Source: Opitutales bacterium (lineage in GTDB: Bacteria; Verrucomicrobiota; Verrucomicrobiia; Opitutales; PNEW01). From it: a stretch of DNA of 64,000 nt. Shown piece by piece: positions 1,161-21,374 of the stretch; within the stretch, counting starts at the first letter, position 1; each line of letters opens with the position of its first letter. Made by a program: the position numbers and the translations under genes. The stretch lies in contig CBDANS010000006.1 of NCBI GenBank assembly GCA_965197745.1, positions 1,216,001 to 1,280,000 on the forward strand, given 5' to 3'. The notes beneath the pieces were generated by a model, which was not told the origin of the DNA, did not search any database, and saw only the letters and a program-made list of their open reading frames with translations.

Positions 1161-2478
1161 TGATCGGGTTACGTAAACTGGTCCACCGAGAGAGTTAGTC
1201 TGGAGAGGTTAATGTTGAAGTTAAGTTGGTAGAGGAAGTCAAGGCTTGGGCGCAATGAGGGCGTAGCCCGAATGGAGCCCAAGCCTTCGGTATTAATGTC
1301 TTCAGCGAAGCACCGTGGGGTGATATTGCCGAGGCTGCGGTGGGGTCGGACATTATTGTAAAGCCAGCGCCAGTCCTCGATCACCACGCGGGCTTCGGTC
1401 AAAGTCCATAGCTGTTCACGGTTTAAACACTCCTCGCGAAAACGGGCATGCAACGATTCGATGTATCCGTTCTGCCAAGGGCTTCCTGGTTCGATATAGA
1501 GGGTTTTGATTTTCATCGCAGTTAGCCAGGCTCTCAATTCCTTTTCAATGAATGGCTTCGCATGTCGTCGCTTCGCTCCTCGGAACGGAACCGTTGTCAC
1601 TGCGAATATATTGTGGCGGCCCATGACGGGCAAGCAGTTTTTGCATGATACCGCGCACCGTTTCCGCATTGATATGGCGATCAACATGGATCACTCGACA
1701 CTCGCGGGTGTACTCATCGAGCACGGTCAACATTTTTAAACTGCCACCGCGGACCGTCTTATCGTGGATAAAATCCCAGGTCCAAACATGGCCGGGATGT
1801 TCGGCCTTGGTCGGCAGCCCGGTGGAAACACCCCTGCCCCGACGTCTTGGCTTGCGTTGGGGGATCGCCAAGCCCAGTTCGCGTCGTAGACCTTGCACGA
1901 GACGTTTACCCACCTCCCAGCCTTCGTCTTTCAACAGCTTCGTGATCTTCGGATAGCCCCACCTGGCATATTGCCGTGATAACCGCCTTACTGCCGCCTT
2001 CAGTTTCATTAACCAAGCATCCGGATGCTTCGCCTTATACGCATAGGTGGAACGGTGCAGCCGAAAGTACCGGCACCCCGCTCGCATCGAACACTGGCCC
2101 CGAGCCACAAGTCTCTCTGCCACTTGCCGCTTGTGCCCAGGGCTTACAGTTTTTTTTCGAGGGTCTCCTGCAGGATCTCTATCCCCAGCATCTTGTCCGC
2201 CAGCATCCGTTTTAACCGCGCGTTCTCCTTCAAAGAGTTCCTTCATCCGCTTGGCCTGGTCGACATCAATCATCCCAAACTCACGCTTCCAGCGGTGGAA
2301 AGTCTGTTCGCTAATGTTGTTCTCGCGGCATGCTTCCAGGATCGTTTTCCCTTTGTCCGCCTGCCGCAGCATCCGTATTTTCTCTTCAGTTGTGTATCTT
2401 TTGCCTTTCATTGTCTGAGTCCTTTCTAGGTTACCCAGACTAACTTTTCAAGTGTACCAGTTTTCGTGGTCACGACCA
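1161..2478 (-). mobile_element. IS3-family insertion sequence (IS407-like), 1318 bp
   Basis: Imperfect terminal inverted repeats (TGATCGGGTTACGTAAACTGGTCCAC vs reverse complement TGGTCGTGACCACGAAAACTGGTACAC), TG...CA ends, 4-bp direct repeat AGGG at 1157-1160 and 2479-2482, encloses an OrfA/OrfB transposase. Confidence 0.9.
1169..2411 (-). pseudogene. IS3 transposase OrfA/OrfB, disrupted
   Basis: HTH OrfA (MKGKRYTTEEKIRML...FHRWK) and integrase-core motifs WTWDF, DEYTRE, SDNG, PGSPWQNGYIESLH split over ORFs 1545..2411 and 1169..1687 by a ~31-32 nt insert at 1554-1585. Confidence 0.85.
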
Positions 2479-4922
2479 AGGGTAATATTAGTTTCGGGTA
2501 AGATTGAGAAGCTTAGTAATAAGTTTTTAAGTTAATAACCTTTTGTAAAAATAGTATCAGCTTTGGTTTTAATCCATTTAAGCTCATCTTGAGAAAGATT
2601 TTTCGCGGTAAGGACAATGACTGGAATATTAGAAAACCTTTCCTGGTCCCGAAATTCTTTTAAAAAACTCAACCCATCCATTACCGGCATGATAAGATCG
2701 AGGAAAATAACATCCGGGGTGAATGATTCCAGCGATTCTAAAGCTTCCCTTCCATTAGCGGCTGTGCGAATTTCGTTTTTATCCTCTTCCAGCCATAATT
2801 TTACCATTTCCTGATATTCGTGACTGTCTTCAACGACTAATACTTTTCTATCTTCAATCTGGTCTGAATTCAACGATCGTCTGATACAAGCGAGAAAATC
2901 GGTTTCCCCAACGGGTTTCGTCAAAGCGTCAACAGCTCCCAGGGAGATGGCCTTACTCTTATCTCTATCGGCTACCATACTGATGATAATAACCGGGATA
3001 TGGGATAAATTCGGATCTTTTTTAAAGCGCCCAGTAATTCCAATCCGTTAGCCTGGGGCATCATTATATCCAGGGTAATAAGGTCGGGTTTGTATTCGTT
3101 AACAACGTAAAAAAATTTTTCCGGCTCGCCGCACTCCTGGTACTCAGCGCCTATTTCTTTTATATACTGACCGATAAATTCCCGAGCGTCGGAATCATCA
3201 TCCACCACGAGTATGCGTTTACCCGGTGTGATGGGGAGAAATCTTTTCAAAGATGATTTTGAGTCGTCAATAAGGGACAAGGTCTCAACGACGTCAGCTG
3301 CTTCTCGCATTTTCTTTTCCTCGGTTTCCTCTTCATCCTTTGTGGATACTGGTTCTTCCTTTTCTATTTTTTCCTCTTCTTTGATAGTGACCCCGTTTAA
3401 TTCAATCGAAAAAGTACTTCCTTCTCCATATTCACTACTGAGGGTTAAATTACCGCCCAGCAGTTTGACCATGTCGCGGGATAAGGTAAGACCGAGTCCG
3501 GTACCTCCATATTCTCGTGAAGTGCTGCTGTCGGCCTGGGTAAAAGGTTCGAATATGGTATTGATCATTTCAGGCATGATACCGATTCCGGTATCGGCAA
3601 TGTCAATGAGAGCTTTTTGTTTATCCGCGTCGAGCAATTCACACCGCACAATTACCGATCCCTCATTTGTAAATTTAACCGCGTTTCCAACTAAATTTGT
3701 TAACACCTGTTTTAATTTGAATCCGTCAGTGTTTAAGAGGATCGAAGAATCAGAAATCTCGCTTTTTAAAATTATATTTTTACCAGTGGCTTCCTGTTGA
3801 AACATATCGACGACATCTCGGATTATGGGGATCAAGTCAGTACTTTCCGGCACTAAATCCATACGGAGCGCTTCAATTTTTGCCAGATCCAGAATGTCAT
3901 TGATTAATGATAAGAGATGTTTCCCGTTATTATTTACTTTTTCTATTCGGTTGATATCCGCGGAGGTGAGATTCCCATTACGGTTTTTCACGAGGATACC
4001 TGAAAATCCAATAATGGAATTAAGCGGGGTGCGTAATTCGTGACTCATATTAGCGACAAATTCACTTTTTTGCCGGTGCGAAGCCGCCAGTTCTTCATTA
4101 GCTTCTTCCAAGAGGATAGACTGTTTGTGAACCGCGCGATAAGTGATAGCATTTATAATTGAATTGGCGGGGACCTCGGTATGGTTAGACAGATGTTGGC
4201 GCGTCTGTTTATCCATTTTGCTATGACTGGCGAGAATCACCAACCCGAGAATTTTCTTTCGGAAAATTAAAGGGATTCCATAAATATTTCTGATTTTAGC
4301 ATCAGTGGATTCTAAATTTATATCGGGCAATGCCTCGAGGTCCATATCATCGAGAATAATCCACTCACGCCTGCGCAATATTTCACCGGGAAAACCGTCC
4401 ATGATATCGGTATCGGAAAAGTGTCGAAGGAATGAACGATCCTCGCTTTTGCGAACCAAAGGAACCAGCTCATCTTTTTGTTCCTCATAAAGATAAAATA
4501 TGCCTACCTGGCTGTTGGATATCCACATCAGGTAGTCGATTGAAGAAGAGGCAATCGTGTTAATTTCAATCGATGCTATTTTAGAAAGGAATTCTCCGAA
4601 CATTTCCTGTCTCGCTACGGAGAGGGAAAGTTCCTGATTCTGATCTTCCAGTTGCAATCTCGAAGAATCTATTTTATTGCGTGATGATTCCAGCTCAGAG
4701 ATTGAAGAGGAGATTTTCGCCGCCATCTGATTGACGGAGGCAGCCAGTCTTCCCAGGGAATCTGAACTTATGTCATCGGATCGGGCCTCGTAGTCTCCTT
4801 GACCGATATTATCGGCAATGATGGAAAGCTGACGTAAGCGAATTGAGGTGTACCTGAATTGATTTAATATTACGCGTTTATAACCTTAACACAAGACAAC
4901 AACCATTAATTATGAAACATAA

Positions 4923-5330
4923 GTGGTTAAAAGACTTAGAAACTGTTTCCTGTTTGGCTTTGGAGTCGGGATTGGTCTTATTATCGAGTTCTACATCCAC
5001 CAGGAGTCCACAATGATATTGTTTGGCTTTGCAAGTTTGATGCTTTTGTGTGTTCTTTTATGTGCTATTCCTGAATTAAAAACGTGGCTTTTTGTTTTCA
5101 AACAAAACTATGTGATATATGTTTTGAGAGTTGAGAATATTGATGGTCTCGATCACTTTTTTGCTCGAGATATGCAAGGCGAATTTTTATACGACATTCA
5201 ATGCTCTACAAAAGATTATAAACGCCCTCCATACGATGTTGGAACTGTAGTATATGTACGTGGTAAACGTGGCTGTAAGAGGAAAGGAGCTTATCAATTA
5301 CTCGTTGATTGCTTTGTTACCATACCATGA
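4923..5330 (+). CDS. Hypothetical membrane protein, IS passenger gene
   Basis: 135 aa ORF with two hydrophobic N-terminal segments, AT-rich, inside the IS1595 inverted repeats. Confidence 0.5.
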   Translation: MVKRLRNCFLFGFGVGIGLIIEFYIHQESTMILFGFASLMLLCVLLCAIPELKTWLFVFKQNYVIYVLRVENIDGLDHFFARDMQGEFLYDIQCSTKDYKRPPYDVGTVVYVRGKRGCKRKGAYQLLVDCFVTIP

Positions 5331-5410
5331 TCAGAAATAGAACGCTTAATGACTCAAAATGACAACTAAATCACAGGCGAGGTTTAATGCACTGATCAAA
5401 GCAGCGTGCT

Positions 5411-6265
5411 CTAAAGATTTGCGACCAAATCCCCAAAAATCGCGTTCGGCCAATCCCGACGATTGTAGCGATATTCAAACTCCTTCACATATTTCTGGAG
5501 ATGCTTCTTCGAAACGTGGACGTGCGTCCCGCGTATCGAAAGCTTCAAGCGCGCCCAGAACCCCTCAATCCCGTTAACATGAATATCTCCCCGACTATAT
5601 TCGCCATCCCCGTGATTAACAGTTCTATGCCTATAACCAATTTTATTAATCCCATTATAAGATCGGAGTTCATCAGTATGCATTATGCTTCCTTGTTTCA
5701 CGTTTTCTTTAACAATGGGTTGAAGGACGTGTTTGCGAACATTAGGAACAATTTTAGTCATTATTTCGCCGTTACGTTCAAGCATCCCAAAGACCACCGT
5801 TTTATTAGATGCACCACGTCCACGCTTGCCCCCAGAATGTCTCCCCCAAATATAGATTTCGTCGGCTTCTACAATACCTTTCAAAGTATTTTCACCGTCA
5901 ACGTCCGCCATATATTTGCGAATTTCGTGCGCCATACGCCATGCGGTTTTGTATGGCACGTCAAGTTGCCGACTCAGTTCCATTGCTGCAACACCATGCC
6001 GAGAAGTAGAAAACAAATACATGGCGTAGAACCACTTATGGAGAGGAAGGTGGGTATTCCCCATAAGTGTTCCAACACATGGGTAAAGATGATGACCACA
6101 GTGTTGGCATACATATCCACGATCTCTTGTCATGCGATAAAACTTACTAAAAGCGTCACATTTTGGGCAGTCAAGCTCTGTGCCACCATAGCGCTCAACC
6201 ATAATACGTTGCAAACATGCTTCATCGTTAGGGAATTGCTTTTGGAATTCATAGAAACTTTTCAT
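5411..6265 (-). CDS. IS1595-family DDE transposase with Zn ribbon
   Basis: CPKC...CQHC zinc ribbon, HTH (LSRQLDVPYKTAWRM), VEADE, HTDE, VNH, HVNGIEGFW, EFEYRYNRR. Confidence 0.92.
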   Translation of the reverse strand: MKSFYEFQKQFPNDEACLQRIMVERYGGTELDCPKCDAFSKFYRMTRDRGYVCQHCGHHLYPCVGTLMGNTHLPLHKWFYAMYLFSTSRHGVAAMELSRQLDVPYKTAWRMAHEIRKYMADVDGENTLKGIVEADEIYIWGRHSGGKRGRGASNKTVVFGMLERNGEIMTKIVPNVRKHVLQPIVKENVKQGSIMHTDELRSYNGINKIGYRHRTVNHGDGEYSRGDIHVNGIEGFWARLKLSIRGTHVHVSKKHLQKYVKEFEYRYNRRDWPNAIFGDLVANL

Positions 6266-6660
6266 ATTGTCCTTAATTTTGGTTTAATTGAGGGTAAATA
6301 TAACACACAATTAAACTTGTGTAAAGGTTATAAACGCGAAATATTAAGATCAATGCGAGGATAATGAAACCTATGGTTAAAACACGTGGATCAATTACCT
6401 GGGTATCTGCTTTTTCCGCTTCAAGTATAGTTGGGTAATAAACAATGGCTAAAACAGAGAAGAGAAGAATAACCAGTAAAAAGCCGCCAAAGACAGAAAA
6501 AGGGCGGGTTTTATTTAACTTTAATCCTGTTTTTTCTTTGATGCTCATGACAAAGCGTACACCTCCCAACGGGTCCTAAAGTAAAGAAAAGAGAACATCA
6601 TTTTATCAACTTGAAATCAAGGATATAAGGGTAAATGCCGTCCTCAATTCCCCTTTTCCC

Positions 6661-7614
6661 TTATTTTTGATTTAATATTATAATCCTGGTCCTGTCATCT
6701 GGCTGACCCGCAACCCATTGATTGTTCCACTCAGGGATAAAAGATTCATTTTTGAATTTCTGGTCATTGAGCCCAATCGTCGAAAGGATTAACTGATTTC
6801 GGTCTCTTTCCATTAAACGCATTTCAAATGGATACTCAATGAGTGCCCCCGTTTGACAATGAATGGCGCCACCCATACCGGTGATATCCGAGATGTGCCA
6901 GTGCCCGCAAAATACGGCAATGATATTTGTGTGTTGCGAGATCATCCTGCGCAGCGATTCCTCATGTACGCTGTAGGAGGCAAAGTGATGATAAGGTGTC
7001 GGGTAATCATTTATTGGTTTCCCCGTCTGTAAAGTTTCAACAGGATAAGTTGGCTTTGAATGTATCGGCGCATGGGTAACAATAATTGTCGGCTGGTCTT
7101 GATTTTCGGTGAGTTCATTTTTCAGCCAGTCAAGAACGTCCTGCGAAGGGCCAATGCCTGAATAATCTTCTTCCCGAACAATTGTCGTTTCTTGATAATC
7201 ATACGCTTTCCCGTCTTTTGTTATCCAGTTAGCGCTATCGAGGAAAATAAAACGTAGCCCGGCTAAATCACGAGAATAGTATAAGTTGCCGTTTTCATTT
7301 TCAATGAGAGTGGTGATGGATTTCCGAATCCCCTCGGTTTGTGCGTCGTGATTTCCAAGAATAATATAATAGGGGCAAGCCATGCGGTCCATGATATCCA
7401 CCCCAAATTGAAAACTTTCTACATCTCCAGGATGAGTGAAGTCACCACAATGGATAATATAATCGGGGGACAGATTCTTAACGGTTGAAATGAGCGCTTC
7501 ACCGATTTCAGCTGACCGCGAACCGAGCGTTCGATTCCACCAGCGACTGTCCTGACCTTTTCCCGGTGGAGAAAAATGGGTATCGGTCATAATTACAAAT
7601 CGGGCGTCTATCAT
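6661..7614 (-). CDS. Calcineurin-like metallophosphoesterase
   Basis: Motifs DTH, GD, GNHD, THAP, GHWH. Confidence 0.88.
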   Translation of the reverse strand: MIDARFVIMTDTHFSPPGKGQDSRWWNRTLGSRSAEIGEALISTVKNLSPDYIIHCGDFTHPGDVESFQFGVDIMDRMACPYYIILGNHDAQTEGIRKSITTLIENENGNLYYSRDLAGLRFIFLDSANWITKDGKAYDYQETTIVREEDYSGIGPSQDVLDWLKNELTENQDQPTIIVTHAPIHSKPTYPVETLQTGKPINDYPTPYHHFASYSVHEESLRRMISQHTNIIAVFCGHWHISDITGMGGAIHCQTGALIEYPFEMRLMERDRNQLILSTIGLNDQKFKNESFIPEWNNQWVAGQPDDRTRIIILNQK

Positions 7615-7711
7615 GATCGACTAAAAAGTAATATATTTAAACGCACTATGGGTCTGTATTAGATGGGACATTTTATCAACAGATTAATTAAAGTCCGGAA
7701 ATGGGCGGTTA

Positions 7712-9445
7712 CTATGAATCCTCGATCGGCGTCTCTCCCGTCGACCATAGGGTTAAGCCGAAATGTTTTTTCTTTTCCGGCTTGCGACAGAATAAGAGCA
7801 AACCAAAACCGACAAATAAAAAGATAAAGATTCCGGGAAATTGTACCCATTGAAAGCTAAGCACGCCCCCCTCGGTATAACGGCCGGAATAGTACCAGAA
7901 ACTGGTGCTGAATGAATAAGCCAGGGCAAATACCGCAAGTAACCCCGCGCTGAATACGTGAGATTTACGACTGATTTTTAATAGAGCCGCAACGAGAAAT
8001 AAAAATCCGGCCACGGCCAGTGGAATTAAAATAGTCTTAATGGGTATGGCCCCTTCGAGGCCGTTCTTTGATGAAACGTACCAGGTAATCATTCCCGTTA
8101 TTACTCCCCAACTAAAAGTTAATCCTACCCAGATGACGCGACTGTTAACTTTGCGGGAGCATACGGTGATAAGAAAGACAGGCCCCAGGACAATGCCATA
8201 GGAATTCCATATCGCACCGGCTTCAACTACGGTCTCTCTCAGTTTAGATGCAGTCCCCGCAATAGATAAGGCCACGGCAATCGCGATTACTCCAATCGCG
8301 ACCGTTAAAATACGTGCGATCGCATATTGCCTGCCTTCCGTCGCCGACGGATTGATGTATTTCAAATAGACATCTTTAAGCATCACCGCTGAAAGGCTGT
8401 TTATTCCCGAGTCAAGAGTCGACATCGCTGCTGCCAACATTGCGGCAAGAATCAATCCCGGCAGCGGGGCTGGCATTTTCGTGGCAATGAAGGTATAAAG
8501 CGCGGCATCACCTGTAGTCACACTGGGATCAGGATACAGTCCATAGTAAGTAAAAATAGAAAAACCGATTAACCAGAGCATAAGAACCATGGGAACGAGA
8601 AGCACAGAGTTGGTGTATGCGGCATACTTGGCTTTCTCATAAGTGCCTGCGCTCAGCAATCGCTGGATGGTGATCTGGTCTGCACAGGCAATATAGATAG
8701 GGTTTACCAATTCGTTGATTAAAATAAACCAGAAACATAATCGCAGATAGGGATCCAATCGGTAAAAATCGGGGTTGGCGTAATGTATCGGTCCACGGTC
8801 ATGCTCTAATGAATAGTTGAGAACTCCGATAAAGCCACCGTCGACATTTTTGCAGATCATTACAATGATTAGCAACATCCCGCCAAAAAGAACGAAGAAC
8901 TGGATAACATCGGTCCAGATGACTACGCGCATGCCCCCGAGAAAGGTATAAAAAATACCAATCATCGCGATTACAGGAATGGTAATCATTACCGGCCATC
9001 CTACCGCGCTCTCGAAGATTTTCGACGAGGCATAAAGAACCATCGAGAGGTAAGCGAGCCGGGTCCAGAAATATAGCATGCTGATTACAATCCGAACACT
9101 TGAATCATAGCGACGCTCGAGGTATTCGAAGGGAGTGAAAACCTTCAGCTTAAAATAGAACCGCACACAGAGAAAAAAACCAATCAGCGAGGTGATCGGC
9201 AGGAAGATTTGTGCTAAAAACAACGACAATCCATGATTATAGATCTCCCCTGGAATCATTACCAAAGAGATGGTGCTTATGATGGATATTTTATAGGAGA
9301 TACCTACCGCCCACCATGGCATCTTTCGTCCTCCCAGAAGGTACTCCTCGCTCGTTTTCTCCCGGCGCGAAAACCAAAAACCCATCGCCACCATCATACC
9401 CATGTAAATGACAATGGTCAGGTAATTGATAGCCCCAAAATTCAT
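7712..9445 (-). CDS. Sodium:solute symporter (SSS family)
   Basis: EYLLGGRKMPWW, FEYLERRY, GGMRVVIWTDVIQ, DQITIQRLL, AAAMSTLDSGINSLS; many TM helices. Confidence 0.92.
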   Translation of the reverse strand: MNFGAINYLTIVIYMGMMVAMGFWFSRREKTSEEYLLGGRKMPWWAVGISYKISIISTISLVMIPGEIYNHGLSLFLAQIFLPITSLIGFFLCVRFYFKLKVFTPFEYLERRYDSSVRIVISMLYFWTRLAYLSMVLYASSKIFESAVGWPVMITIPVIAMIGIFYTFLGGMRVVIWTDVIQFFVLFGGMLLIIVMICKNVDGGFIGVLNYSLEHDRGPIHYANPDFYRLDPYLRLCFWFILINELVNPIYIACADQITIQRLLSAGTYEKAKYAAYTNSVLLVPMVLMLWLIGFSIFTYYGLYPDPSVTTGDAALYTFIATKMPAPLPGLILAAMLAAAMSTLDSGINSLSAVMLKDVYLKYINPSATEGRQYAIARILTVAIGVIAIAVALSIAGTASKLRETVVEAGAIWNSYGIVLGPVFLITVCSRKVNSRVIWVGLTFSWGVITGMITWYVSSKNGLEGAIPIKTILIPLAVAGFLFLVAALLKISRKSHVFSAGLLAVFALAYSFSTSFWYYSGRYTEGGVLSFQWVQFPGIFIFLFVGFGLLLFCRKPEKKKHFGLTLWSTGETPIEDS

Positions 9446-9540
9446 TTCGATTTTCGTTTAACGCTCAGGAATTTAAAGAGGATTGAAAGAATGGATGTGT
9501 GAAATAATGTATTCATAACCGCTGAGACGCATTTCAATTG

Positions 9541-11268: not shown

Positions 11269-11399
11269 GGTTAGAATTCAGATATAATTACTTAGTACAT
11301 AAATTCACTGCAAAGATATGTGTTGGACAATAGGTTGCGATCATTCCAGATGAAAGGTTTTTTATTGGAAAACATGCTTTCATTGAAGGTGCAATAGGC

Positions 11400-11424
11400 G
11401 GAGGGCCACGCTCCGTCGTGGCCG
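11400..11424 (+). repeat. REP-like hairpin with GGAG foot
   Basis: GGAGGGCCACGCTCCGTCGTGGCCG; related copies at 14990-15014, 53611-53637 (reverse) and 53654-53678. Confidence 0.65.
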
Positions 11425-11516
11425 TTTTATTAATATTGAAAATTATAACGAAATAGAGAGTCGATTCCCCATAGGAAAGACTTGATTGGTAGCCGGCATC
11501 TTAAAGCACGATGTCG

Positions 11517-11590
11517 ATTCGCCTGGAATGGAAGATGTCGTTGCGCTCGGTAGCTTCGTCTCCCGCGGATGCGGATCCTCGCAATGACAA
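11517..11590 (-). repeat. Intergenic palindromic repeat (GTCATTGCGAG family) carrying a 33-nt insert
   Basis: Near-identical to 15031-15103 (opposite strand) and 21183-21250; shared CGCCTGGAATGGAAGATGTCGYTGCGCTCGGTA and CCTCGCAATGA. Confidence 0.8.
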
Positions 11591-11599
11591 AGGTGGGAG

Positions 11600-12595: not shown

Positions 12596-12682
12596 GGACA
12601 ATTATGGTTTTAAACATTCAAGTCGTATTTATAAACGTCAAGAGAAGAAGCTTTCCACCTCAACTCTGGAGCGAATAAAAAA

Positions 12683-12938
12683 ACCGCTGAGGCACAAAGA
12701 GCGCTGAGATTTTAATTTAGGGTTTTCTGAAATCAGTTATCAATACTTTAACTCAGCAGGGAAAAAAAATTAACCACAGATAACACGGATAGATACGGAT
12801 GCAGAGGCATAGAATGAAAATTCGACACAAAAGAGCATAGGTAATGAACCTTGTTTCGGCTTTTGAAATACTTATCCGCTTAATCCGTGTAATCTGCGGT
12901 ATTATTTACTTCTGCGCTCTCTGCGCCTCAGCGGTTAC
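12683..12938. repeat. Nested inverted-repeat intergenic element
   Basis: Outer AACCGCTGAGGCACAAAGAGCGC pairs with GCGCTCTCTGCGCCTCAGCGGTT; inner ACCACAGATAACACGGAT pairs with ATCCGTGTAATCTGCGGT. Confidence 0.7.
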
Positions 12939-12942
12939 TAAC

Positions 12943-13926
12943 TCAATCTTTCTCGTCTATCGCCTGCATCAATGCATGCAGATAACCATAGCAGTAGGCG
13001 AATCCGACACGACCCGCTTCATCACCATCAATCCCTGGCACATGGTCCGGCATTACCATGTAGGGATATCCGACTTCTTTATAGACGCGTAGAGCTTTTA
13101 ACATGTCAACCTCACCCTCGTCCGGAAACACTTCAACGAAATCGAGAAACCCACCCTTTATATTGCGGAAGTGAAGATTAAAAATCTTATTCCGTTCACC
13201 GAAATATCTTATGATCTTAAAGATTTCTTCACCCGGATTAGTCAGCATTTCCGAGATCGTGCCCTGGCAAAAATTCAAACCGTGCCAGGGGTTCTCGTGC
13301 ATGGACACATATTTTTTAAGCCCATCGACGGTCCCCATCACCCTGGCTACGCCCCGGTAAGTATCGTCGCCGATGCCGGGGTCCTGCGGATGACAGGCCA
13401 ATTGAACCTTATATTCTTCGGCTACCGGGACTACCCGTTCCAGCCAGTAATCGATGCGCTCCCACATCGTGTCGGCATCCGCGGCTCCCCCTTCGAATTC
13501 ACCCAGTGATTGATCTAATTTTTGGTAATCGAATGATGAGAGCTCAGCGCCCCCCCGGCCGTGACGGGATTCCGTTCTCAGGTGCCCGAGAATGGTAATA
13601 TTATAATTAACTCCGCGCAGACCGGCAGCGGAGGCCATTTGAATGATTTCGCAAGCACCATCGATCTCTCGCTCGCGCTCGTCGCTCGGGCCGAGAAAAA
13701 TATGAGACATTTCTCTTTCAAAAGCCGATCGTGAGCTGAGGGGAAGATGAATCATTTCCACGGTGATTCCGTGTTTGGCGTAATTCTCCCGTATGGAAGT
13801 TAAAGAATCGACTGACCATTCTCTCCAGGGTTCCTGCGGTGTGACATCGACATGCTCGACTCCCAACTGAGATAATTGTAGGATGTCCGTTTCATGTCGG
13901 TCGGTATATTGTGTGCCTAAGTACAT
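12943..13926 (-). CDS. uxuA: Mannonate dehydratase (UxuA family)
   Basis: VPVAEEYKVQLACHPQDP, GLNFCQG, HFRNIKG, EVFPDEGEVDM, MPDHVP; family-level call, substrate unproven. Confidence 0.8.
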   Translation of the reverse strand: MYLGTQYTDRHETDILQLSQLGVEHVDVTPQEPWREWSVDSLTSIRENYAKHGITVEMIHLPLSSRSAFEREMSHIFLGPSDEREREIDGACEIIQMASAAGLRGVNYNITILGHLRTESRHGRGGAELSSFDYQKLDQSLGEFEGGAADADTMWERIDYWLERVVPVAEEYKVQLACHPQDPGIGDDTYRGVARVMGTVDGLKKYVSMHENPWHGLNFCQGTISEMLTNPGEEIFKIIRYFGERNKIFNLHFRNIKGGFLDFVEVFPDEGEVDMLKALRVYKEVGYPYMVMPDHVPGIDGDEAGRVGFAYCYGYLHALMQAIDEKD

Positions 13927-13980
13927 GCGAAGTCTCTTAAAACAATGTCACGAATCATGCAATTGAGGAATTTGGGTTGA

Positions 13981-14080
13981 TTCACCGCAGAGTCGCGGAG
14001 AACGCAGAGATAAAATTTTAAAATCAAGAAAAACAAACCCTAAATTAAATTCTCAGCGCCCTCTGCGCCTCTGCGGTGAA
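13981..14080. repeat. Inverted-repeat intergenic element (same family as 12683-12938)
   Basis: TTCACCGCAGAGTCGCGGAGAACGCAGAGA pairs with TCTCAGCGCCCTCTGCGCCTCTGCGGTGAA. Confidence 0.7.
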
Positions 14081-14088
14081 TCAAGAAG

Positions 14089-14874
14089 TTACTTCACAAA
14101 ACGCTTGAGGTGATCCCGCAGGACTTGCTCGCCACCGAGTTTTACTAATTCACCGTCTTCCGCGGTGAGCAGCAGCTGTATCCCTTCGGCGTTTTTCTCA
14201 ATCCACTCGGCGGCCTGGTTGAGCTCGCCAAATGAATCCACCGCGATGCCGGCTGCTTTATTATTGTCTTTCGCCGCCTTCACGATACGCGATATCGCGG
14301 ACTTAAAATCGGGATGATCCCACTGCTGAAAACAACCCATGCCGAGGGAGAGATCGGAAGGGCCAATGAAAACAGAGTCCAATCCCTCCAATTGCGCGAC
14401 TTCTTCAATCACATCGAGGAGGCTGGTCAATTCTACCTGGACCATGACGATGACATTGTCATTCCAGTTTTCAAAATAGCTGTCGTCCGCTCCATAGTTC
14501 GAAGCCGCCTTCGGTCCGAATCCGCGAATCCCCTCGGGAGGGTATTTGCAGCTGGCAATAGCCCGCTTCGCATCTTCTACCGTCCCGACTAGAGGAACGA
14601 GAACGCCCTGAGCGCCATGGTCTAAAACCTGTTTAATAACGTCGGGTCGGTTATCCTCAACGCGAACGAGGGGCACGGTTTCGGAATCTCTGAACATCCA
14701 TAATATCTCGCGCAAAGACTCGGTGTTGCGCGGGGCATGTTCATTATCGATGATCACATAATCAAAACCAACCCTCGCCAGGTTGACTGCAATGAGCGCA
14801 TCCGACGACGTCGACCAGCCGCCTACACTGATTTTACCCTCACGCCATTTGTTCTTTAATTCCCGTCCCGTCAT
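14089..14874 (-). CDS. HpcH/HpaI class II aldolase family protein
   Basis: GFDYVIIDNEH, VLDHGAQGVLVP, YPPEGIRGFG, VFIGPSDLS; probable start ATG at 14874. Confidence 0.9.
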   Translation of the reverse strand: MTGRELKNKWREGKISVGGWSTSSDALIAVNLARVGFDYVIIDNEHAPRNTESLREILWMFRDSETVPLVRVEDNRPDVIKQVLDHGAQGVLVPLVGTVEDAKRAIASCKYPPEGIRGFGPKAASNYGADDSYFENWNDNVIVMVQVELTSLLDVIEEVAQLEGLDSVFIGPSDLSLGMGCFQQWDHPDFKSAISRIVKAAKDNNKAAGIAVDSFGELNQAAEWIEKNAEGIQLLLTAEDGELVKLGGEQVLRDHLKRFVK

Positions 14875-15030
14875 CGCTGTGAATGGATAGTTATATTTCT
14901 TTGTCTCCGAAATCAAGCTGTATCTATGGATAAGGAAAATGAGTATAAGCGAACAAGCGTGAATGCGGATTCGATGCAGGAACCAAATTGGCGGGCCACG
15001 CATCGTCGTGGTCGCGCAATACCTAAATTC

Positions 15031-15103
15031 TCATTGCGAGGATCCCGCAGTTGCGGGTGACGCGGCTACCGAGCGCAACGACATCTTCCATTCCAGGCGA
15101 ATA
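15031..15103 (+). repeat. Intergenic palindromic repeat (GTCATTGCGAG family) carrying a 33-nt insert
   Basis: TCATTGCGAGGATCCCGCAGTTGCGGGTGACGCGGC + TACCGAGCGCAACGACATCTTCCATTCCAGGCG + AATA. Confidence 0.8.
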
Positions 15104-15211
15104 TACGTTATGTATACACTATCAACGGATTCCAGATAACAACTGGCACCGCAGTCTAAACTAGTTTAAGAATAACAATTGGCTTTTATAGCATGAACCT
15201 TGCGCTATCCA

Positions 15212-16402
15212 CTATTCAGGCTTTCCAAGGAAGTTAAACGTCGACGTCGTTATTTTTAAAATATCACCGTCATCATTAATGCCATCAGCCCAAGTCCCCT
15301 GCTGCACTAATACAAGGAATAGAGTATATTCACCGATTGGTTCTACTCCAGACCAAACATATTGGAAAACACTGAAGTTATCGACAATGAATGGATTAAT
15401 CAGATCTACCCCGGCTACGAAGGGAGTAAGGGTTGAGAAATCAGATAAGTTTCCCTGTGTAATTGTGGATCCACTGTTACTAATGCAGAATATTATTCCA
15501 AAGGGGCAACCCATTCCCACATAAATGTCAACGAATACATCTACGCCATGATTGTTTACATTCATGGTTATATTCATGGGATCGCCAATATTATATTCAT
15601 CCTGATCTGCATTGATGTTACTTTCAAACAATATATCTATATCATCTGGAATGGATATGGCAATTGGGCCCTGAACAACGGCATAGCCTAGGTTAGGACG
15701 GTCATCTTTTCTGATATCTTGTTTGCCCGTTTTGGTTGCTGAAAGAACACATCCAGTATCAATGCTTAACCCTGACACCAGTGCTGATTGATCGAATGTG
15801 ACCGAGACAATGCGGCAGATGGTGCCTCCATCTCCATTATCGTCGTCGTCACCGTCATCATCATCACCTTCGTCACCGTCATCGTCATCACCTTCGTCAC
15901 CGTCATCGTCACCGTCATCGTCGTCGTCGCTGTCATCAAATTCAAACTTAATTCCCTTTATCTGGGTTGTTGGATCATTGCTTGCTATTTCGCAATCGCC
16001 TTCTCCATCAAATCCACATTCTACGACGAAGTCATTTAAGGTATTACCCTCGGCTAAAAATGGTTTAATTTGGTCAAGTGCAAGTACCCAATGGCCAAGA
16101 TCTTTTACCTGTGGACTCTGTTTGCATATATCATAAATAAATGTAACGAAATTTTCTTCAACCTCTACTGTCAACAGCTCAACACTGAACTTGCCGTTAT
16201 CAGTAATCGCCGGGTTGTCGTCACAGTTTGAAACTTCAGGGAGTTCTACTTCAGTATCGGGTGGTTTACCCTTCGAATGATCATCTTTATGTTCGGCGTA
16301 TGATACTACGCCAGTCAACATAACCAGGCTAATTACGACTGGAAAATAAATTAAAAACTTTCGAATAATAGAAATGGGCACTCTGCTTATATAGCTGAAC
16401 AA
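15212..16402 (-). CDS. Secreted acidic hypothetical protein with Asp/Gly-rich tract
   Basis: Signal-peptide-like N terminus (..VVSYA-EH), DDSDDDDDGDDDGDEGDDDDGDEGDDDDGDDDD tract, beta-rich C-terminal region. Confidence 0.7.
   Translation of the reverse strand: MFSYISRVPISIIRKFLIYFPVVISLVMLTGVVSYAEHKDDHSKGKPPDTEVELPEVSNCDDNPAITDNGKFSVELLTVEVEENFVTFIYDICKQSPQVKDLGHWVLALDQIKPFLAEGNTLNDFVVECGFDGEGDCEIASNDPTTQIKGIKFEFDDSDDDDDGDDDGDEGDDDDGDEGDDDDGDDDDNGDGGTICRIVSVTFDQSALVSGLSIDTGCVLSATKTGKQDIRKDDRPNLGYAVVQGPIAISIPDDIDILFESNINADQDEYNIGDPMNITMNVNNHGVDVFVDIYVGMGCPFGIIFCISNSGSTITQGNLSDFSTLTPFVAGVDLINPFIVDNFSVFQYVWSGVEPIGEYTLFLVLVQQGTWADGINDDGDILKITTSTFNFLGKPE
15838..15938. repeat. Coding low-complexity tandem repeat (GDEGDDDD units)
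   Basis: TCACCGTCATCRTCATCACCTTCG-type 24-nt unit repeated, embedded in TCG/TCA triplets. Confidence 0.75.
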
Positions 16403-16612
16403 TGATAATTATCCTTTCTTAAACTTGTGATAATTGCTTATCGTGTAAAGCGACATATGGTGAAAAAACATCATTTTTGTTGTTATTAGGTATAACGTAT
16501 AAATCCCTATGTAGTATAAGCTCAGCTTAGATTATTGTATAATAAAACGGAGCCGGGACGCTGAAGTAAATCGGGAAACAGTCGTATCATAAAACGGAAA
16601 ATAGCAATGGCA

Positions 16613-18851
16613 TCACTCAATCGTGATCTCATCGGTTGTCACTGAAATCTCATCCCCGTCCTCGTTGGCGAAAGTGGCATCGATACTCTGGGTCGGTTGA
16701 GGGGTGTTATCGGACTTGAAGTTGTTTTGAGTGATCAAAGTCTCAAACCCGGGTATCGTCGATCCACTCTCCGCGACGACGATTGAAGCTCCGTTCGTCT
16801 GCGAAAGGTCGCCACCTGTGATCCGCAAACCGGGGTTGCCCGCCGGCACTGTGAAAGAACCCCCTCCAAACAGAAGGTGGGGTACCGCGTCGCCACTGGC
16901 ATCGATGTCGCCCACGGTAATGCGTACTGCGATCGGCACCCCGCGCGCATCCACGCCGGTCTTGCCGGTGCTTCCCGAAAAAACAGTGTTCGACAGCTGC
17001 ATCCCTCCCATTCCAGTGGAATTTATTACTTCCACCAGGGTCACATCCGCCTGTGCATCATAAACTTGCCCCTCGGGGAAGAGGGCCTGGTTCACGGCAT
17101 TGATGGATCCTACGGTGAAGATACTGAAGAAGGTACTGGAGTCCGCACCGTCGATGACCACGCTCGGTTTGCCCGTAACGTATTCTACTGCCTGGTTGTA
17201 GCGTGGGGGAATAGCAGGGGGCAGGAAGGTAGCCGGGGCGAGGGTTACGGTAAAGGATCCTGCACCCGAGAACTCTACCTGCACAATGTCCTCGGTTTCA
17301 TCCATAAAGGAGACCCGGGTAATTTGACCCGGCCTGGCTTGGAGCTGGATCGTTTCACCGGTAAGTAGAATCTGGTCGAAGATGTTTCCATTCGGATGCT
17401 GGATGTTCTCTCCCGCGATATCGCCTGTACCGTCAAGTACCAGAGGGACGGAGGGTGCCGCTACAGTGATGACTGCCGTTTCACTGTTTGCGTTGCCGCC
17501 GGCATTGGTAATTTGCACCCAGAAATTCGTGCTAACGGTGAGAGAACCCGTGGTCAAGGTGCCGCTCGTGGCCCCGGTGACAGGATTCGCGGAGTCACTG
17601 CTGTTGCCGGAAAACCATTGGTAGGTAAGATCATCGCCGCTTGCCGCTACTGATAAAACAACAGCCGTTCCGGTTTGCACTTTCTGGCTCGCAGGTTGGG
17701 TAGTGATGGAGGGGGCACTCGGTCCTCCTCCGTCGCTCGGTGCGCCGATCGGGGTGAAGCCTATATCATCGATGGCAATATTTAAAAATGAGCCGGATGC
17801 CGTCACCGTTTGAGGGTTTATGTAGCGAATTTCACCAATGCCCCCCCGGAGCACCCAGTTCCTCTGCAACGAATGAGAACACCTCGAAAGGTGCCTCATT
17901 GACATCAAACATGTTCAGAGGGATGTCCGTAGTCGAGAGGAGTAAATTTCCCTCTGCGTCATAAACTTCTAATTCGCCATCCCCTTGCTCTATAACCGCG
18001 GCGTAAAATTCAACTTTGGCAGCTGGAGTTTCAAAAGTAATTATCCCGGTCCCTTCGTCCGGAACTTGCCAGGATCCTCCACCTACATCACCGGTAGGTT
18101 CACCGCCTTCAGAGGATAAAGGTAGGGTGTGGTTAAATCTATAAAATGTCGAAGCAATAATGGTTGAGACGATACCACCGGTAAAGGTGGCCGTAACCGG
18201 AGGTGTTCCCAGCGTGAAATTTACACGGTTTACAAAAGTGCTGAAGATAGGATGATTATCCAGACCTGAAAAATCTTCGAATACGGTATTGTTAGGCGGT
18301 CCATCGACATAAGAAAATCCCAGGTCATCAAGGGCGACGGCTCCACCTGGATTAACTATTTTAATTTCTTTTATTCCGTTCGTAAAATTGAGGTCGGTAG
18401 TGATGTTGGTATCTCTAATGAAGGCGACAAAACTTTGTAGAGGGGGATTAGCACCCGGGCTGATATTGGCGGGTAGGCCTTCAACTACACCTGGATCCGC
18501 CAGAATAATAAAGTTTTTATCTCTTAACTCGATTCGACTCCCGCTCTGGGTATCCACCGCAAAGAACTGAAGTAAGTTAACCCCTCTTTCGAAGACGATT
18601 TTTCCCTCTGAGGCACCTGGAGCCAGGACTAATGCCTGGGTACCTGAATGAGCGAGCGCAGGGTCAGTTACGGTTTCCAAGGAAAAATTAAAAACCTGGA
18701 TACTGTTCGGGGATTCACCAAAAACAAATGTAGTACCCTCTGCTGATACCCCTTCAAAATCGAAGAAATTATCCAGGTTCTGTTGGGCTGCAAGGTATGA
18801 CGGCCAAAGAAGGATGAGTATTAAACAGAGTTGAATATATTTAGTGAACAT
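16613..18851 (-). pseudogene. Large secreted protein (two beta-rich repeats + Ig-like domain + conserved C-terminal domain), frameshifted at a G7 run
   Basis: ORFs 17832..18905 and 16613..17908 join colinearly with paralog 22272..24245 if one C is removed from C7 at 17841-17847 (ELGAPGGIGEI vs ELGAPGGIGKI); Ig motif PSITTQPASQ...LTYQWF. Confidence 0.8.
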
Positions 18852-19063
18852 AAGCTGCTTCCTGTCAGATTTTATCAGATCTCCCAATTTTACAAAAGAG
18901 CGCACTTACTAGCCACCAGACTGTTGAAAGTCAAGGGAGGTTCCCTGCCAATGACGATTGCGTCGAATGATAATTTTAAATTGAAAACCGTCAGTTACAA
19001 TCCGCAATCGTACCGAGGACGAAGGCCGACATCTTACAAATCAGCAATCCGCAATCGAATGTC

Positions 19064-19756
19064 TCAGGTATTTAAAATACCTTTGCGTCTATAGACTATG
19101 GCAACAACAAGCGCGTATATTACGTGATTTATCCAGCTGATCACGCTGGTCTTGACGATGCCATTCCCACCATCTTGAGCAGCCATTTCAGGTTCGACAA
19201 GGTCTTCACTAGGGAGAGGTGCTTCCGCGACAGCTTCTGTGGGGCTATTGGATTCGCTCGAATCAACATTTTCGCCGACTTCCTCAGCTGCGTCCACACT
19301 GGCCATTTCCTCTTCCGTGAGGGGGATATCGATGCTAACTTCTGCTTGCGGAAGGTCGGCATTGCTAAAGGCCAGATTAGTGAGAACGGGTAAACCGAGT
19401 ACCGCGATAACACTTAATACGGTTCCGTAAAGAACACCTTTTAGAATTTGAGAAGCGCCGAGCGGAGAAATAAGCCCGGCATAGATCACGCCGTAAAAAA
19501 TACCAATCACTAAATGAAAGGCGCCACCTACAAGGTAGTGGCTTAACTGTCCTGCCCCCGTTCCCATGAACTTGGTTCCAAGCATGATGATATCGCCCAG
19601 ATCCTTCATGATATTCAGACCGAAAAGGGCCATGGTCCCGGTCATTACCGCGGTAGCAATTATACTGGCAATAATTGCGCGACCCCATCTCAAGCCCTGT
19701 CTTATATCAAATGCCGTCTGGCTGGACGCTCTGTGAGGAGGGGGATTTTCTTCCAT
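19064..19756 (-). CDS. Hypothetical membrane protein (about 4 TM) with acidic loop
   Basis: IIATAVMT, FHLVIGIFYGVIYA, WINHVIYALVVAIVY hydrophobic segments; Glu/Ala-rich insert. Confidence 0.7.
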   Translation of the reverse strand: MEENPPPHRASSQTAFDIRQGLRWGRAIIASIIATAVMTGTMALFGLNIMKDLGDIIMLGTKFMGTGAGQLSHYLVGGAFHLVIGIFYGVIYAGLISPLGASQILKGVLYGTVLSVIAVLGLPVLTNLAFSNADLPQAEVSIDIPLTEEEMASVDAAEEVGENVDSSESNSPTEAVAEAPLPSEDLVEPEMAAQDGGNGIVKTSVISWINHVIYALVVAIVYRRKGILNT

Positions 19757-19961
19757 AATGGATAACCGGATTTTGGATATTATTGATTGAAGTAAAACGA
19801 CAGGCTAATGTTTAAATGAATATTTATTCTCAACCAAGATTTTTTTTATATTTTTAAGCGTTTATTAATATGACCTCACAATTTACCGACTGCGGCTTCG
19901 TTAGGTTATGGAGCCAGGTGGATAACTCCTTTGAATAAAACGATTAATGTCGGTTGATGAA

Positions 19962-20858
19962 TTACCGGGTTTCTGTTAAAACATGTTCGATAAGCGATTC
20001 CGCATAGTCGGATTCAGCTTTGCTCAGCGTGTAGGTAGAGGAGCGCACGACAGGCTGATCGATTAATCCCTGACGGGCAAGCAAGCGCTTTTCTAAATGG
20101 AGAAGAATTTCCAAATTTTGCAGGGAATAATTGATGAAGGGCAATAGACGCCCCATTTCGGTAATAGCATTTGTCATCTCATCATCCCTGGCCAGGCGGT
20201 AAATACGGTTAAGGGGTTCGAGCAATGCCATACCCGGCATCACGCCGCATAATCCATGGGGAATTAATTCTAACATATAGTAACCACCCCAACCCTCGAG
20301 GACACCCACGCGATCATTCACGCGATCACGAATCGCCAGTAATTTATTAACAAATAAAGGTTCCTCCAGTTTAACATAGGTAAAATTAGGATGATTCTTG
20401 TTCAGGGTGTGTATTAATTCAGGACCAATTGTCGGTCCCCCGGGATTGAAATCCTGGACTAATAAGGGAAGGGAAATTGCGTCAGCAATTCTGCTTAAGT
20501 GGTTCAAGACATCACTTTCACTTATAGCGAACAGGCGTGGAACCGCAGTGGAGATCATGTCCACGCCCATTTCCTGGTAATGTCGGGCTATCTCGCAAGC
20601 AACACGGCTGGATACATGATTGGCCTGTCCAATAACCGGTATTTTTTTTGCGGCCGCTTCTACGGCAGTACCGATAACCGCTTCGCGTTCTTTATCTGTC
20701 AGCTTATAAAACTCACTGGCATAAGCAGGGAGACAGATTGCTTCCGCGCTTGATTGGGAGCAGAATTCAACCAGGCGTTTTAAATCCGCATGGTTAATGG
20801 ATTCGTCTTCATTGAACGGAACCGGAACAATAGGGACAATACCATCAATATTTATCAT
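19962..20858 (-). CDS. Dihydrodipicolinate synthase-like (DHDPS/NAL family) aldolase/dehydratase
   Basis: GIVPIVPVPFNEDESI, SEFYKLTDKER, IPVIG, YVKLE Schiff-base Lys; lacks the GTTGE motif of true DapA. Confidence 0.85.
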   Translation of the reverse strand: MINIDGIVPIVPVPFNEDESINHADLKRLVEFCSQSSAEAICLPAYASEFYKLTDKEREAVIGTAVEAAAKKIPVIGQANHVSSRVACEIARHYQEMGVDMISTAVPRLFAISESDVLNHLSRIADAISLPLLVQDFNPGGPTIGPELIHTLNKNHPNFTYVKLEEPLFVNKLLAIRDRVNDRVGVLEGWGGYYMLELIPHGLCGVMPGMALLEPLNRIYRLARDDEMTNAITEMGRLLPFINYSLQNLEILLHLEKRLLARQGLIDQPVVRSSTYTLSKAESDYAESLIEHVLTETR

Positions 20859-20986
20859 GGGGGTGATCTTTTATTTATATAGGGATAAATGGCAAAGGAG
20901 AATTAAAATTTACCGCGGAGGTGTTAAGATCGCTATGTCAATGGAATGATCAGGCGGTGTGTTCTAAATGTCATTTTACAAAAATA

Positions 20987-21255
20987 CTCCTATTGTCATT
21001 GCGAGGGAGGCTATCAGCCGACTGCGGCAATCCAGAAATATTGAATTGACCGATATTACATTTGAACCGAACTAAAAGTATGTGCGCAATATCTATTACG
21101 AATTACAACCTTGCTAATAAGCATGACAGAGGACTCATTGGGTATTTATGAGCGAAGAATGATATTTGCAGGCACAGTGACTATTCGCCTGGAATGGAAG
21201 ATGTCGCTGCGCTCGGTAGCCACGTCGCGCTGCTCCTCGCAATGACAAAAGGGAG
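20987..21255. repeat. MITE/REPIN-like element bounded by inverted GTCATTGCGAG repeats
   Basis: CTCCTATTGTCATTGCGAGG (20987-) pairs with CCTCGCAATGACAAAAGGGAG (-21255); the right arm has the 33-nt insert, the left arm lacks it. Confidence 0.7.
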
Positions 21256-21374
21256 ATTAATGAAAACTGTTAAGAACAACCTTAAATCCGCAACTTGTCA
21301 CGCCATTGCCTCGTCATCTCGAGGAGCGATGGCTGATTCGCAATAGGATCGAGGGCGAAGCCCGCCATTTCCCA

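Follow-up and report, generated by a model that had tools for sequence, protein, structure and literature searches.

Here, we describe an abundant family of very small non-coding insertion modules, 23–43 nt long, with fixed ends and a variable hairpin middle, present in a 64,000-nt stretch of an Opitutales genome (contig CBDANS010000006.1, positions 1,216,001 to 1,280,000; hereafter the window), elsewhere in that genome and in a few relatives. An earlier note on the window had pictured either a minimal non-autonomous element or a process of templated insertion. Both halves of that picture survive, in that the ends are conserved, the centres are swappable and filled and empty sites exist. We favour the reading that the modules are non-autonomous single-strand hairpins, spread mainly by templated copying between repeat copies and perhaps started by a hairpin-specific nuclease, and we assign it a probability of roughly 0.42. 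True transposition and templated copying are both compatible with the evidence.

An abundant module with conserved ends

The motif singled out in the earlier note is frequent well beyond chance. Its core pattern, T[AT]CCGAG-N4-14-CGACAT, has 169 matches on both strands of the 4.45-Mb genome (7 contigs), against ~2.5 expected from base composition and a single match to the reversed pattern; five lie in the window, where the core expression recovers each of the five copies first cited (Table 1). A relaxed pattern, with a centre of 3–30 nt and the 3′ box CGACA[TC], has 240 matches genome-wide. The modules follow one plan. The 5′ box, T(A/T)CCGAG, and the 3′ box, CGACA(T/C), enclose a variable hairpin, whose closing pair is formed by the final G of the former and the initial C of the latter; a 5-nt tail with C or CC at its end comes after the 3′ box. 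Type I reads TACCGAG, centre, CGACAT and a 5-nt tail (most often CTTCC), followed by A. Type II is 32–43 nt long and consists of TTCCGAG or TACCGAG, GA, a mini-hairpin, GACGACA(T/C), a second mini-hairpin, GCGAAGC, and the tail.

The case for the hairpin comes from palindromy. Of 86 distinct centres bounded by G and C, 34 contain a perfect stem of at least 3 bp, compared with 5.9% of shuffled centres. Stem sequences are diverse (GGGC/GCCC, GGAC/GTCC, GAGC/GCTC, GTCCCGC/GCGGGAC and others), and the usual loops are GAA, AAA, GTA or GCA. Other genomes have the same boxes with other centres, such as GTT-GAA-AAC in the relative here called G015 and CGAACG or CGAATG in another, G040. The centres thus differ yet retain their pairing by compensatory changes, and the ends are conserved in at least three families of the Opitutales.

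No longer, gene-bearing version with module ends was found in this genome with ends up to 4 kb apart, where only coincidental pairs of separate modules were seen, and no Rfam family matched the window at its gathering score. We considered and rejected a miniature inverted-repeat transposable element: its terminal sequences, TACCGAG and CGACAT, do not form an inverted repeat, there is no target duplication, and there is no long version.

Filled and empty sites

The hosts of the modules are almost all repeated DNA. The 240 relaxed matches divide into 124 in IS3 genes, 37 in the arms of gene cassettes described below, and 79 elsewhere, the last mainly in heptamer arrays, tRNA-linked repeats and a ATAGCCAC^AAAGGCAC repeat (^ marks the insertion point), with a handful of chance matches in genes. 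A systematic search returned candidate paralogous empty sites for 109 of 218 modules, and at least six types of target are represented by paralogues both with and without the module. Clean pairs show 32 nt in place of one nucleotide at SDNGS^E, 43 nt in place of one A at LID^EY, 37 nt in place of AG at RLRD^E and 25 nt in place of AG at the A8 frameshift window; at PW^Q, 43 nt again replace one A, in frame and with no stop. Target duplication was never seen at any filled/empty pair, which confirms an early impression, and the module always has one orientation relative to its host repeat.

Junctions point to a defined target. The 98 type I copies fall into 45 flank clusters, with G or C at position −1 in 36 clusters and A at +1 in 38. 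The preferred target, S^AAT(C)(C), is offered by the tRNA T loop (TTCG^AATCC), the cassette arm (GGC^AATCC) and the heptamer unit; since the heptamer AATCCGC would equal the GCAATCC of the arm, all three hosts may present the same S^AATCC. Insertion into tRNA T loops, IS3 codons and heptamer units costs the target one nucleotide. The T loop is the clearest case: the sequence GGTTCGAATCC of the intact tRNA corresponds in the pseudo-tRNA to GGTTCG, 39–40 nt and ATCC.

The cassette arms also gave clean filled/empty pairs, at the site GGC^AATCCAGG; the empty target sequence is GGCAATCCAGG. Empty arms read GCAATCCAG (70) or GCGATCCAG (41), and filled arms continue after the tail with ATTCCAG (40), ACTCCAG (7), AATCCAG (5) or ATCCAG (2). 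The earlier note had delimited a 33-nt insert in three palindromic repeats of the window. The actual module is ~23 nt, and the first delimitation ran ~10 nt too long because ATTCCAGGCG is part of the host arm; the corresponding sequence of empty arms is AATCCAGG. The three inserts are real, although they need not be three independent insertions: filled arms form a subfamily with a linked A-to-T change. A clean arm insertion by way of empty arms reading GGCATTCCAG was also considered and rejected: there are no such arms, and the 12 matches are unrelated sequence.

Spread among IS3 transposase genes

The matches in genes of IS3-family insertion sequences (IS; n = 124) occupy five sites: SDNGS^E (68), D^EY (29), RLRD^E (13), PW^Q (8) and the A8 site (6). 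All five are either the frameshift window or conserved motifs of the catalytic domain, and modules have broken most IS3 transposase genes of this genome at conserved catalytic codons. When the halves of the window's IS3 orfB were used in a local tblastn search, one class of copies had 34 nt between SDNGS and F, with the frame broken, and another comprised nine copies with a single codon there (GAG, GAA or TAG). This bears out the claim that the insert breaks the SDNGSEF motif. Its description as a 32-nt addition needs amending: the 32 nt are present, but one nucleotide of the GAA/GAG codon is replaced, and the net gain is 31 nt.

All 21 copies of the window's IS3 lineage that have the lineage flank are filled in this genome. 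An empty allele of this lineage occurs in a contig of RNA-library run X15, with 1 mismatch in 126 nt, and that of a sister lineage in a contig of run X5. An insert-less contig from an RNA library might be taken to indicate an RNA-level process, either the excision of a tiny intron from transposase transcripts or the reverse transcription of a small RNA back into DNA. We regard this as highly improbable. At the site, the X15 contig has GAG, a codon that cannot be derived from the filled sequence by one excision, and it therefore represents an empty allele, not spliced RNA; the library may in any case contain DNA, and contigs cannot show transcription. The reverse transcriptase named in the earlier note as a possible partner has no RVT_1 match in this genome (92% complete). 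Ssn nucleases, the single-domain GIY-YIG enzymes considered below, are inactive on RNA according to excerpts of PMC11893778.

The sister lineage is the most informative about spread. Four empty and five filled copies are identical over ~1.3 kb save for four differences: the insert; an adjacent TTT-to-TTC change, which matches the window lineage; a single base at column 1294, in two filled copies; and a 1-nt indel in orfA. The indel, ~650 nt from the insert, is found in both empty and filled copies. Because insert and indel segregate in all four combinations, gene conversion, or short-tract templated copying, between IS copies is indicated.

Within the genome, the IS3 family alone among the repeat families carries modules (120 in 97 segments); the other 23 families listed have none, including transposase-like families and one that is IS110-like by eye. 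Such exclusiveness could mean that the modules serve the host, which would retain them as a form of genome defence in which IS3 transposases, and decoy tRNAs as well, are silenced at conserved codons. The placement of all five sites in the frameshift window or in catalytic-domain motifs fits this idea, as does the breakage of 21 of 21 copies in the window lineage, and another IS3-like family, with 13 segments, is among those without modules. We nevertheless find it very doubtful. About half of the copies lie outside IS genes, at least two apparently intact IS3 copies persist, and no guide-like match between module and target extends beyond the S^AAT junction. Moreover, the conserved-codon placement is equally explained by the similarity needed for conversion between lineages.

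Some further observations concern the IS3 elements themselves. The window copy has an additional 1-nt frame change in orfA, at CTCTTTGAAGG (columns 247–249; window ~2150–2200, minus strand), where other copies have CTCGAGAAGG, shorter by 1 nt; this frame-breaking lesion is common to the window lineage and part of the sister lineage. Only two IS3 copies (C7:1353101 and C7:407578) lack both lesions, and these look intact. The module-free IS3-family element, repeat family 2 (TVDNGPEF...NGYIESFNGRLRDE; 13 segments, e.g. C6:671209-672501), has the same conserved motifs. Run contigs gave no clean presence/absence joints at the window's other module sites; contigs break at these repeats, and this negative therefore carries no weight.

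Cassettes and tRNA-linked repeats with small GIY-YIG genes

The palindromic repeats of the window are arms, two of which flank each of a set of small single-domain GIY-YIG genes (~97 aa). The cassette is laid out as a left arm (TATTGTCATTGCGAGG...GACGCGGC^AATCCAG), the gene, and a right arm (CTGGATTGC...CCTCGCAATGACAA). Copies that lack the gene are dispersed over the genome, which has 139 arm 5′ tags. Among the type A cassettes with a GIY-YIG gene in this genome, three of four have a module in an arm. The window holds a cassette with an internal gene deletion of ~205 nt (20994–21247), its left arm empty and its right arm filled; the empty GCGGCAATCC reported earlier at 21024–21033 is present and is part of that left arm. 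Type II modules have an additional tie to the arms, in that 103 modules and 23 arms have the inner 14-nt core, CGAGGAGC-N3-8-GCGACG, in common. The cassette protein matches Pfam GIY-YIG, and its nearest solved structure is the UPF0213 protein 1zg2 (E = 1.5e-5). Small GIY-YIG genes number 7 in this genome (G000) and 7, 6 and 5 in the relatives G001, G002 and G015, respectively, and several adjoin modules.

Modules also occur in tRNA-linked repeats. In G002 (locus L064), two units stand in tandem behind a tRNA-Asn gene, each made up of a different small GIY-YIG gene and a pseudo-tRNA with a type II module in its T loop (GGTTCG^...^ATCC), and in this genome gene-less versions of the pseudo-tRNA repeats lie behind tRNA-Gln and tRNA-Asn. 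At the G002 locus (C1:398700-400500), the anticodon-stem region of the pseudo-tRNA is also replaced by a hairpin, TCCCGACATATATATGTCGGGA, so that two arms of the decoy tRNA are remodelled. A further small GIY-YIG gene (82 aa), immediately behind tRNA-Val, is flanked by a second kind of tRNA-linked repeat (CCA-GCCTTCGCCC-hairpin-CTGGCAGGCCAGC...CTATTGCCTGGGCGAAGGCTG). This repeat has no module; its sites are C5:56000-57300 (L049) and C7:1845800-1846800 (L050), and it is also found behind tRNA-Arg and tRNA-Gly genes. In an Rfam search of four tRNA-linked or cassette loci, only true tRNAs matched at E ≤ 1, and there was no match to RtT (RF00391).

Distribution among relatives

Among 40 relatives of the order, the core motif is common in four, with 110 matches in G001, 121 in G002, 41 in G015 and 142 in G040; the other 36 have 0–2. 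In a sample of 300 genomes from the phylum, conspicuous counts are confined to a few Opitutales (G290, 16; G246, 9; G281, 5), and counts outside the order are 0–3, like the reversed control. Type II is found in G001, G002 and G040, and not in G015 or G290. Most copies in G040 lie within one longer repeat. That genome also has head-to-tail arrays of two or three modules of 24–25 nt (loci L037, L031 and L043), each following the CC of the preceding unit. These arrays fit insertion at CC^A, because every module recreates a CC^A junction.

How the modules may spread

We propose that the module, having no gene, would rely on functions of the host or of other elements. New contexts would be colonised rarely; inside a repeat family, the module would then pass between paralogous copies by templated copying, that is, short-tract gene conversion. 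Such copying would account for the occurrence of modules in repeats. It would also account for the five fixed IS3 sites, as perhaps only the conserved motifs are similar enough between diverged IS lineages to allow conversion. A T-loop module may have entered IS3 at G-S-E-F because the DNA of that motif (GGTTCCGAGTTC) resembles the T arm (GGTTCGAATCC). For the trigger, our guess is a break in single-stranded DNA made by a hairpin-specific, Ssn-like single-domain GIY-YIG nuclease. According to excerpts of Chenal et al. 2025 (PMC11893778), Ssn nucleases recognise a hairpin motif exclusively in single-stranded DNA, and the cut falls several nucleotides upstream of that motif. We arrive at this guess because both module types are linked to such genes and because the 14-nt core of type II is common to the arms.

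Several points weigh against this scheme, in which the nuclease is our best guess and not a finding. The association of modules with arms may reflect nothing more than the presence of the target sequence in the arms. Many module-poor relatives, too, have small GIY-YIG genes, and in G040, with 145 type I-like and 57 type II-like copies, no small GIY-YIG gene was found at E ≤ 0.001. GIY-YIG enzymes hydrolyse DNA and cannot join DNA by themselves. The arms do not conform to the degenerate SRM pattern published for the Ssn system, HGTCWYN(0-2)YYVSBRHN(0-5)WNVSBRGN(0-2)RNCYNB, which has 16 matches in the genome and 19 in the reversed genome. As to the module itself, nearest-neighbour folding of the window copies was no better than that of shuffles (z from −0.17 to +1.25); with no exceptional stability, the hairpin claim rests on palindromy statistics, not on energy. 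Finally, the 3′ junction varies: most filled arms convert AA to module plus AT, the junction is clean in 5 arms, and elsewhere one nucleotide is lost. The filled arms, with their linked A-to-T change, may all descend from a single clonal subfamily, in which case independent events are fewer than copies.

A GIY-YIG partner, one of the candidates in the earlier note, is thus physically linked to modules, yet absent from some module-rich genomes, as the small type is from G040. That genome has two GIY-YIG matches, a 497-aa frame that is UvrC-sized (by size only) and a 297-aa protein. The latter was considered as a cassette and rejected, as it lies between aminotransferase-like and LexA-like open reading frames (named by eye).

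It is also possible that the nuclease has a larger part, and that the modules are gene-less homing units. An Ssn-like GIY-YIG or other nuclease would nick an S^AAT site that mimics the T loop, repair would copy the module in from any filled relative, and the resulting drive would silence IS3 families at conserved codons. We consider this doubtful.

A more conservative account needs no enzyme, be it dedicated or a trigger. In it, a small number of old chance insertions, arising from replication slips at hairpins or from illegitimate recombination, would have multiplied along with their hosts (IS3 copies, cassette arms and heptamer arrays) and been shuffled by ordinary unbiased gene conversion. 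This passive history seems to us unlikely, although it is the most probable of the alternatives. It would explain why 124 of the 240 matches lie at just five IS3 sites, why filled arms share the A-to-T change (40 ATTCCAG against 5, 7 and 2 of the other forms) and why G040 copies lie mostly in one longer repeat; and gene conversion between IS copies, which it invokes, is directly indicated. It sits less well with the consistent S^A junction of 45 distinct type I flank clusters, with tandem arrays of 24–25-nt units, and with end boxes conserved across at least three families of the order when centres and hosts differ. The module has also crossed between unrelated hosts (tRNA T loop, IS3 genes and cassette arms), and one IS3 lineage is filled in 21 of 21 copies even though the insert breaks the transposase gene.

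The earlier note had also raised a HUH or RAYT enzyme as a possible partner. In that case, the module would be a minimal REP-like substrate, moved as a single strand by the 'peel and paste' route of a HUH tyrosine transposase (IS200/IS605 TnpA or RAYT). The hairpin between conserved flanks, the fixed orientation relative to the target and the lack of target duplication are features in favour, and all five module-rich genomes have Y1_Tnp matches (G000, 1; G001, 6; G002, 4; G015, 17; G040, 46). Y1_Tnp is, however, also present in 17 of 36 module-poor relatives, with 26 matches in G035 alone. The sole Y1 copy of this genome is frame-split and bounded by its own 16-nt inverted ends, not by modules. 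Of ten Y1 loci inspected in G001, G002, G015 and G040, nine have no module within ~2 kb, and in the tenth the module is a passenger inside the Y1 element. There is no replication-strand bias (49 versus 39, p = 0.34), although rearrangements could blur one; the module has a single hairpin in place of two ends, and its insertion costs the target a nucleotide. The link is therefore not supported, and we hold this route to be quite doubtful.

The Y1 element of this genome (IS200-like, ~330 aa; C6:162300-164700) has the inverted ends GGGTCAGACTGCGAAT. Short deletion derivatives, in which the first and last codons are joined, lie at C6:517400 and C7:1100740, and relatives have up to ~25 copies of Y1 elements (G040) with other inverted ends.

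Copies in the window

Coordinates of the copies and their hosts are collected in Table 1. The degenerate copy claimed near the end of the series is real: its central 15-mer, CGAGGGCGAAGCCCG, is identical to that of canonical copies, and 23 of 28 bases match the consensus (ungapped). A dispersed hairpin, GGAGGGCCACGC-TCCG-TCGTGGCC, lies ~100 nt from two of the module-bearing arms (window 11400–11425 and 14995–15020) and recurs at C7:1541700 and elsewhere.

Table 1. Modules and host repeats in the window.
Feature	Position	Strand	Remarks
Matches to the core expression	1562-1585(-), 11535-11552(-), 15067-15084(+), 19011-19032(+), 21201-21218(-)		From sequence
Type II two-hairpin module, TTCCGAGGAGC-GAA-GCGACGACAT-GCGAAGC-C	1554..1585	-	Replaces one nt of the Glu codon in the SDNGS-E-F motif of IS3 orfB
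IS3-family transposase coding region hosting the type II module	1169..2411	-	Module splits orfB into two frames
Type I module, TACCGAG-CGCAA-CGACAT-CTTCC, 23 nt	11530..11552	-	
Solo hairpin arm of the GIY-YIG cassette type (TGTCATTGCGAGG...GACGAAGC^)	11530..11589	-	Host of the module at 11530..11552
Type I module, TACCGAG-CGCAA-CGACAT-CTTCC, 23 nt	15067..15089	+	In solo arm, ~15031-15100
Type I module, TACCGAG-GACGAAGGC-CGACAT-CTTAC, 27 nt	19011..19037	+	In heptamer array (AATCCGC/AATCG...), ~18998-19057
Empty left arm of gene-deleted GIY-YIG cassette (TGTCATTGCGAGG...GCGGC^AATCCAG)	20994..21035	+	
Remnant of small GIY-YIG gene: leader, ~24 codons, 3′ end	21036..21195	+	Internal deletion (~205 nt) relative to an intact cassette on another contig
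Type I module, TACCGAG-CGCAG-CGACAT-CTTCC, 23 nt	21196..21218	-	In right arm (21196-21247) of the same gene-deleted cassette
Degenerate type I copy, TCGAGGGCGAAGCCCGCCAT, then TTCCCA	21349..21368	+	Compared with the consensus by ungapped count

Implications

If they really move, these modules are among the smallest mobile DNA known. They make a good test bed, with more than 200 copies, clean filled/empty pairs, a defined target (S^AAT) and a candidate partner enzyme family with biochemistry from 2025. Should the gene-less homing idea prove true, a DNA of ~25 nt would be mobile in a new way and act as an IS-silencing process, and the cyanobacterial SDR elements discussed below would be explained too. 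That most IS3 copies have been disabled at catalytic codons is relevant to the question of how insertion sequences are kept in check, be it by genomes or by rival selfish elements. In annotation work, modules account for many 'frameshifted' transposase genes and for spurious small open reading frames.

Comparison with known systems

Our literature search on the module sequences, on SDR terms and on GIY-YIG combined with palindromic repeats, hairpins or mobility turned up no description of this module family. Several known systems resemble it in part. In GIY-YIG homing, as with the T4 Seg proteins and I-TevI, endonuclease genes reportedly spread and markers beside them are converted along with them. 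The IS3 lineage, in which the insert appears to have passed between homologous copies together with a short stretch of flank, and the linkage to GIY-YIG genes resemble that process; the module, in contrast, is gene-less. Ssn-type enzymes also differ, cutting single-stranded DNA beside a hairpin and not double-stranded empty alleles (excerpts of PMC11893778).

REP/REPIN-RAYT systems and IS200/IS605 elements have in common with the modules short hairpin repeats, asymmetric conserved flanks, a lack of target duplication and a single-strand logic. Unlike them, the modules are 23–43-nt singlets inside other repeats or genes, nine of the ten Y1 loci have no flanking modules, and strand bias is absent. 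The tRNA-linked repeats of E. coli, including RtT (RF00391), are similar in that partial 3′ tRNA copies are repeated behind a tRNA gene, and different in that the repeats described here hold a nuclease gene and a T-loop module and have no Rfam match.

The Ssn/NTS-SRM system resembles the host arms, rather than the module, in its hairpin-gene-hairpin layout around a single-domain GIY-YIG gene and in its dispersed gene-less copies, as far as excerpts of PMC11893778 describe it. The NTS (CGTCATTCCC...GGGAATCYRG in the same excerpts) and the host arms have in common a (T/C)GTCAT start and an AATCCAG end. A resemblance to the module itself lies in type II, with its inner 14 nt in common with the cassette arms. 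By contrast, the excerpted text of PMC11893778 describes no small insert inside the hairpin.

The closest described elements are the SDR elements of the Nostocaceae. Families SDR1-8 of Nostoc punctiforme and its relatives, attributed to work by Elhai and co-workers in 2008, are said to be dispersed repeats of 21–27 nt, some of them sharing a hairpin with compensatory changes. They reportedly lie often in tandem heptamer repeats or mini-transposons, are sometimes nested, and were judged mobile by comparison of filled and empty sites. The modules, at 23–43 nt and with filled/empty pairs, would fit this definition of an SDR, and their nesting in heptamer arrays, IS3 copies and cassette arms would likewise resemble an SDR feature. 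SDR5 is inserted precisely inside the HIP1 octamer, according to excerpts of PMC4390886, and excerpts of PMC5861425 state that no SDR-like repeats were found outside the Nostocaceae. Here, in contrast, the hosts are Opitutales (Verrucomicrobiota), and the likeness is one of description. The fixed IS3 sites, the tRNA T-loop targets and the link to GIY-YIG cassettes are likewise distinct, none of them being attributable to the SDR paper.

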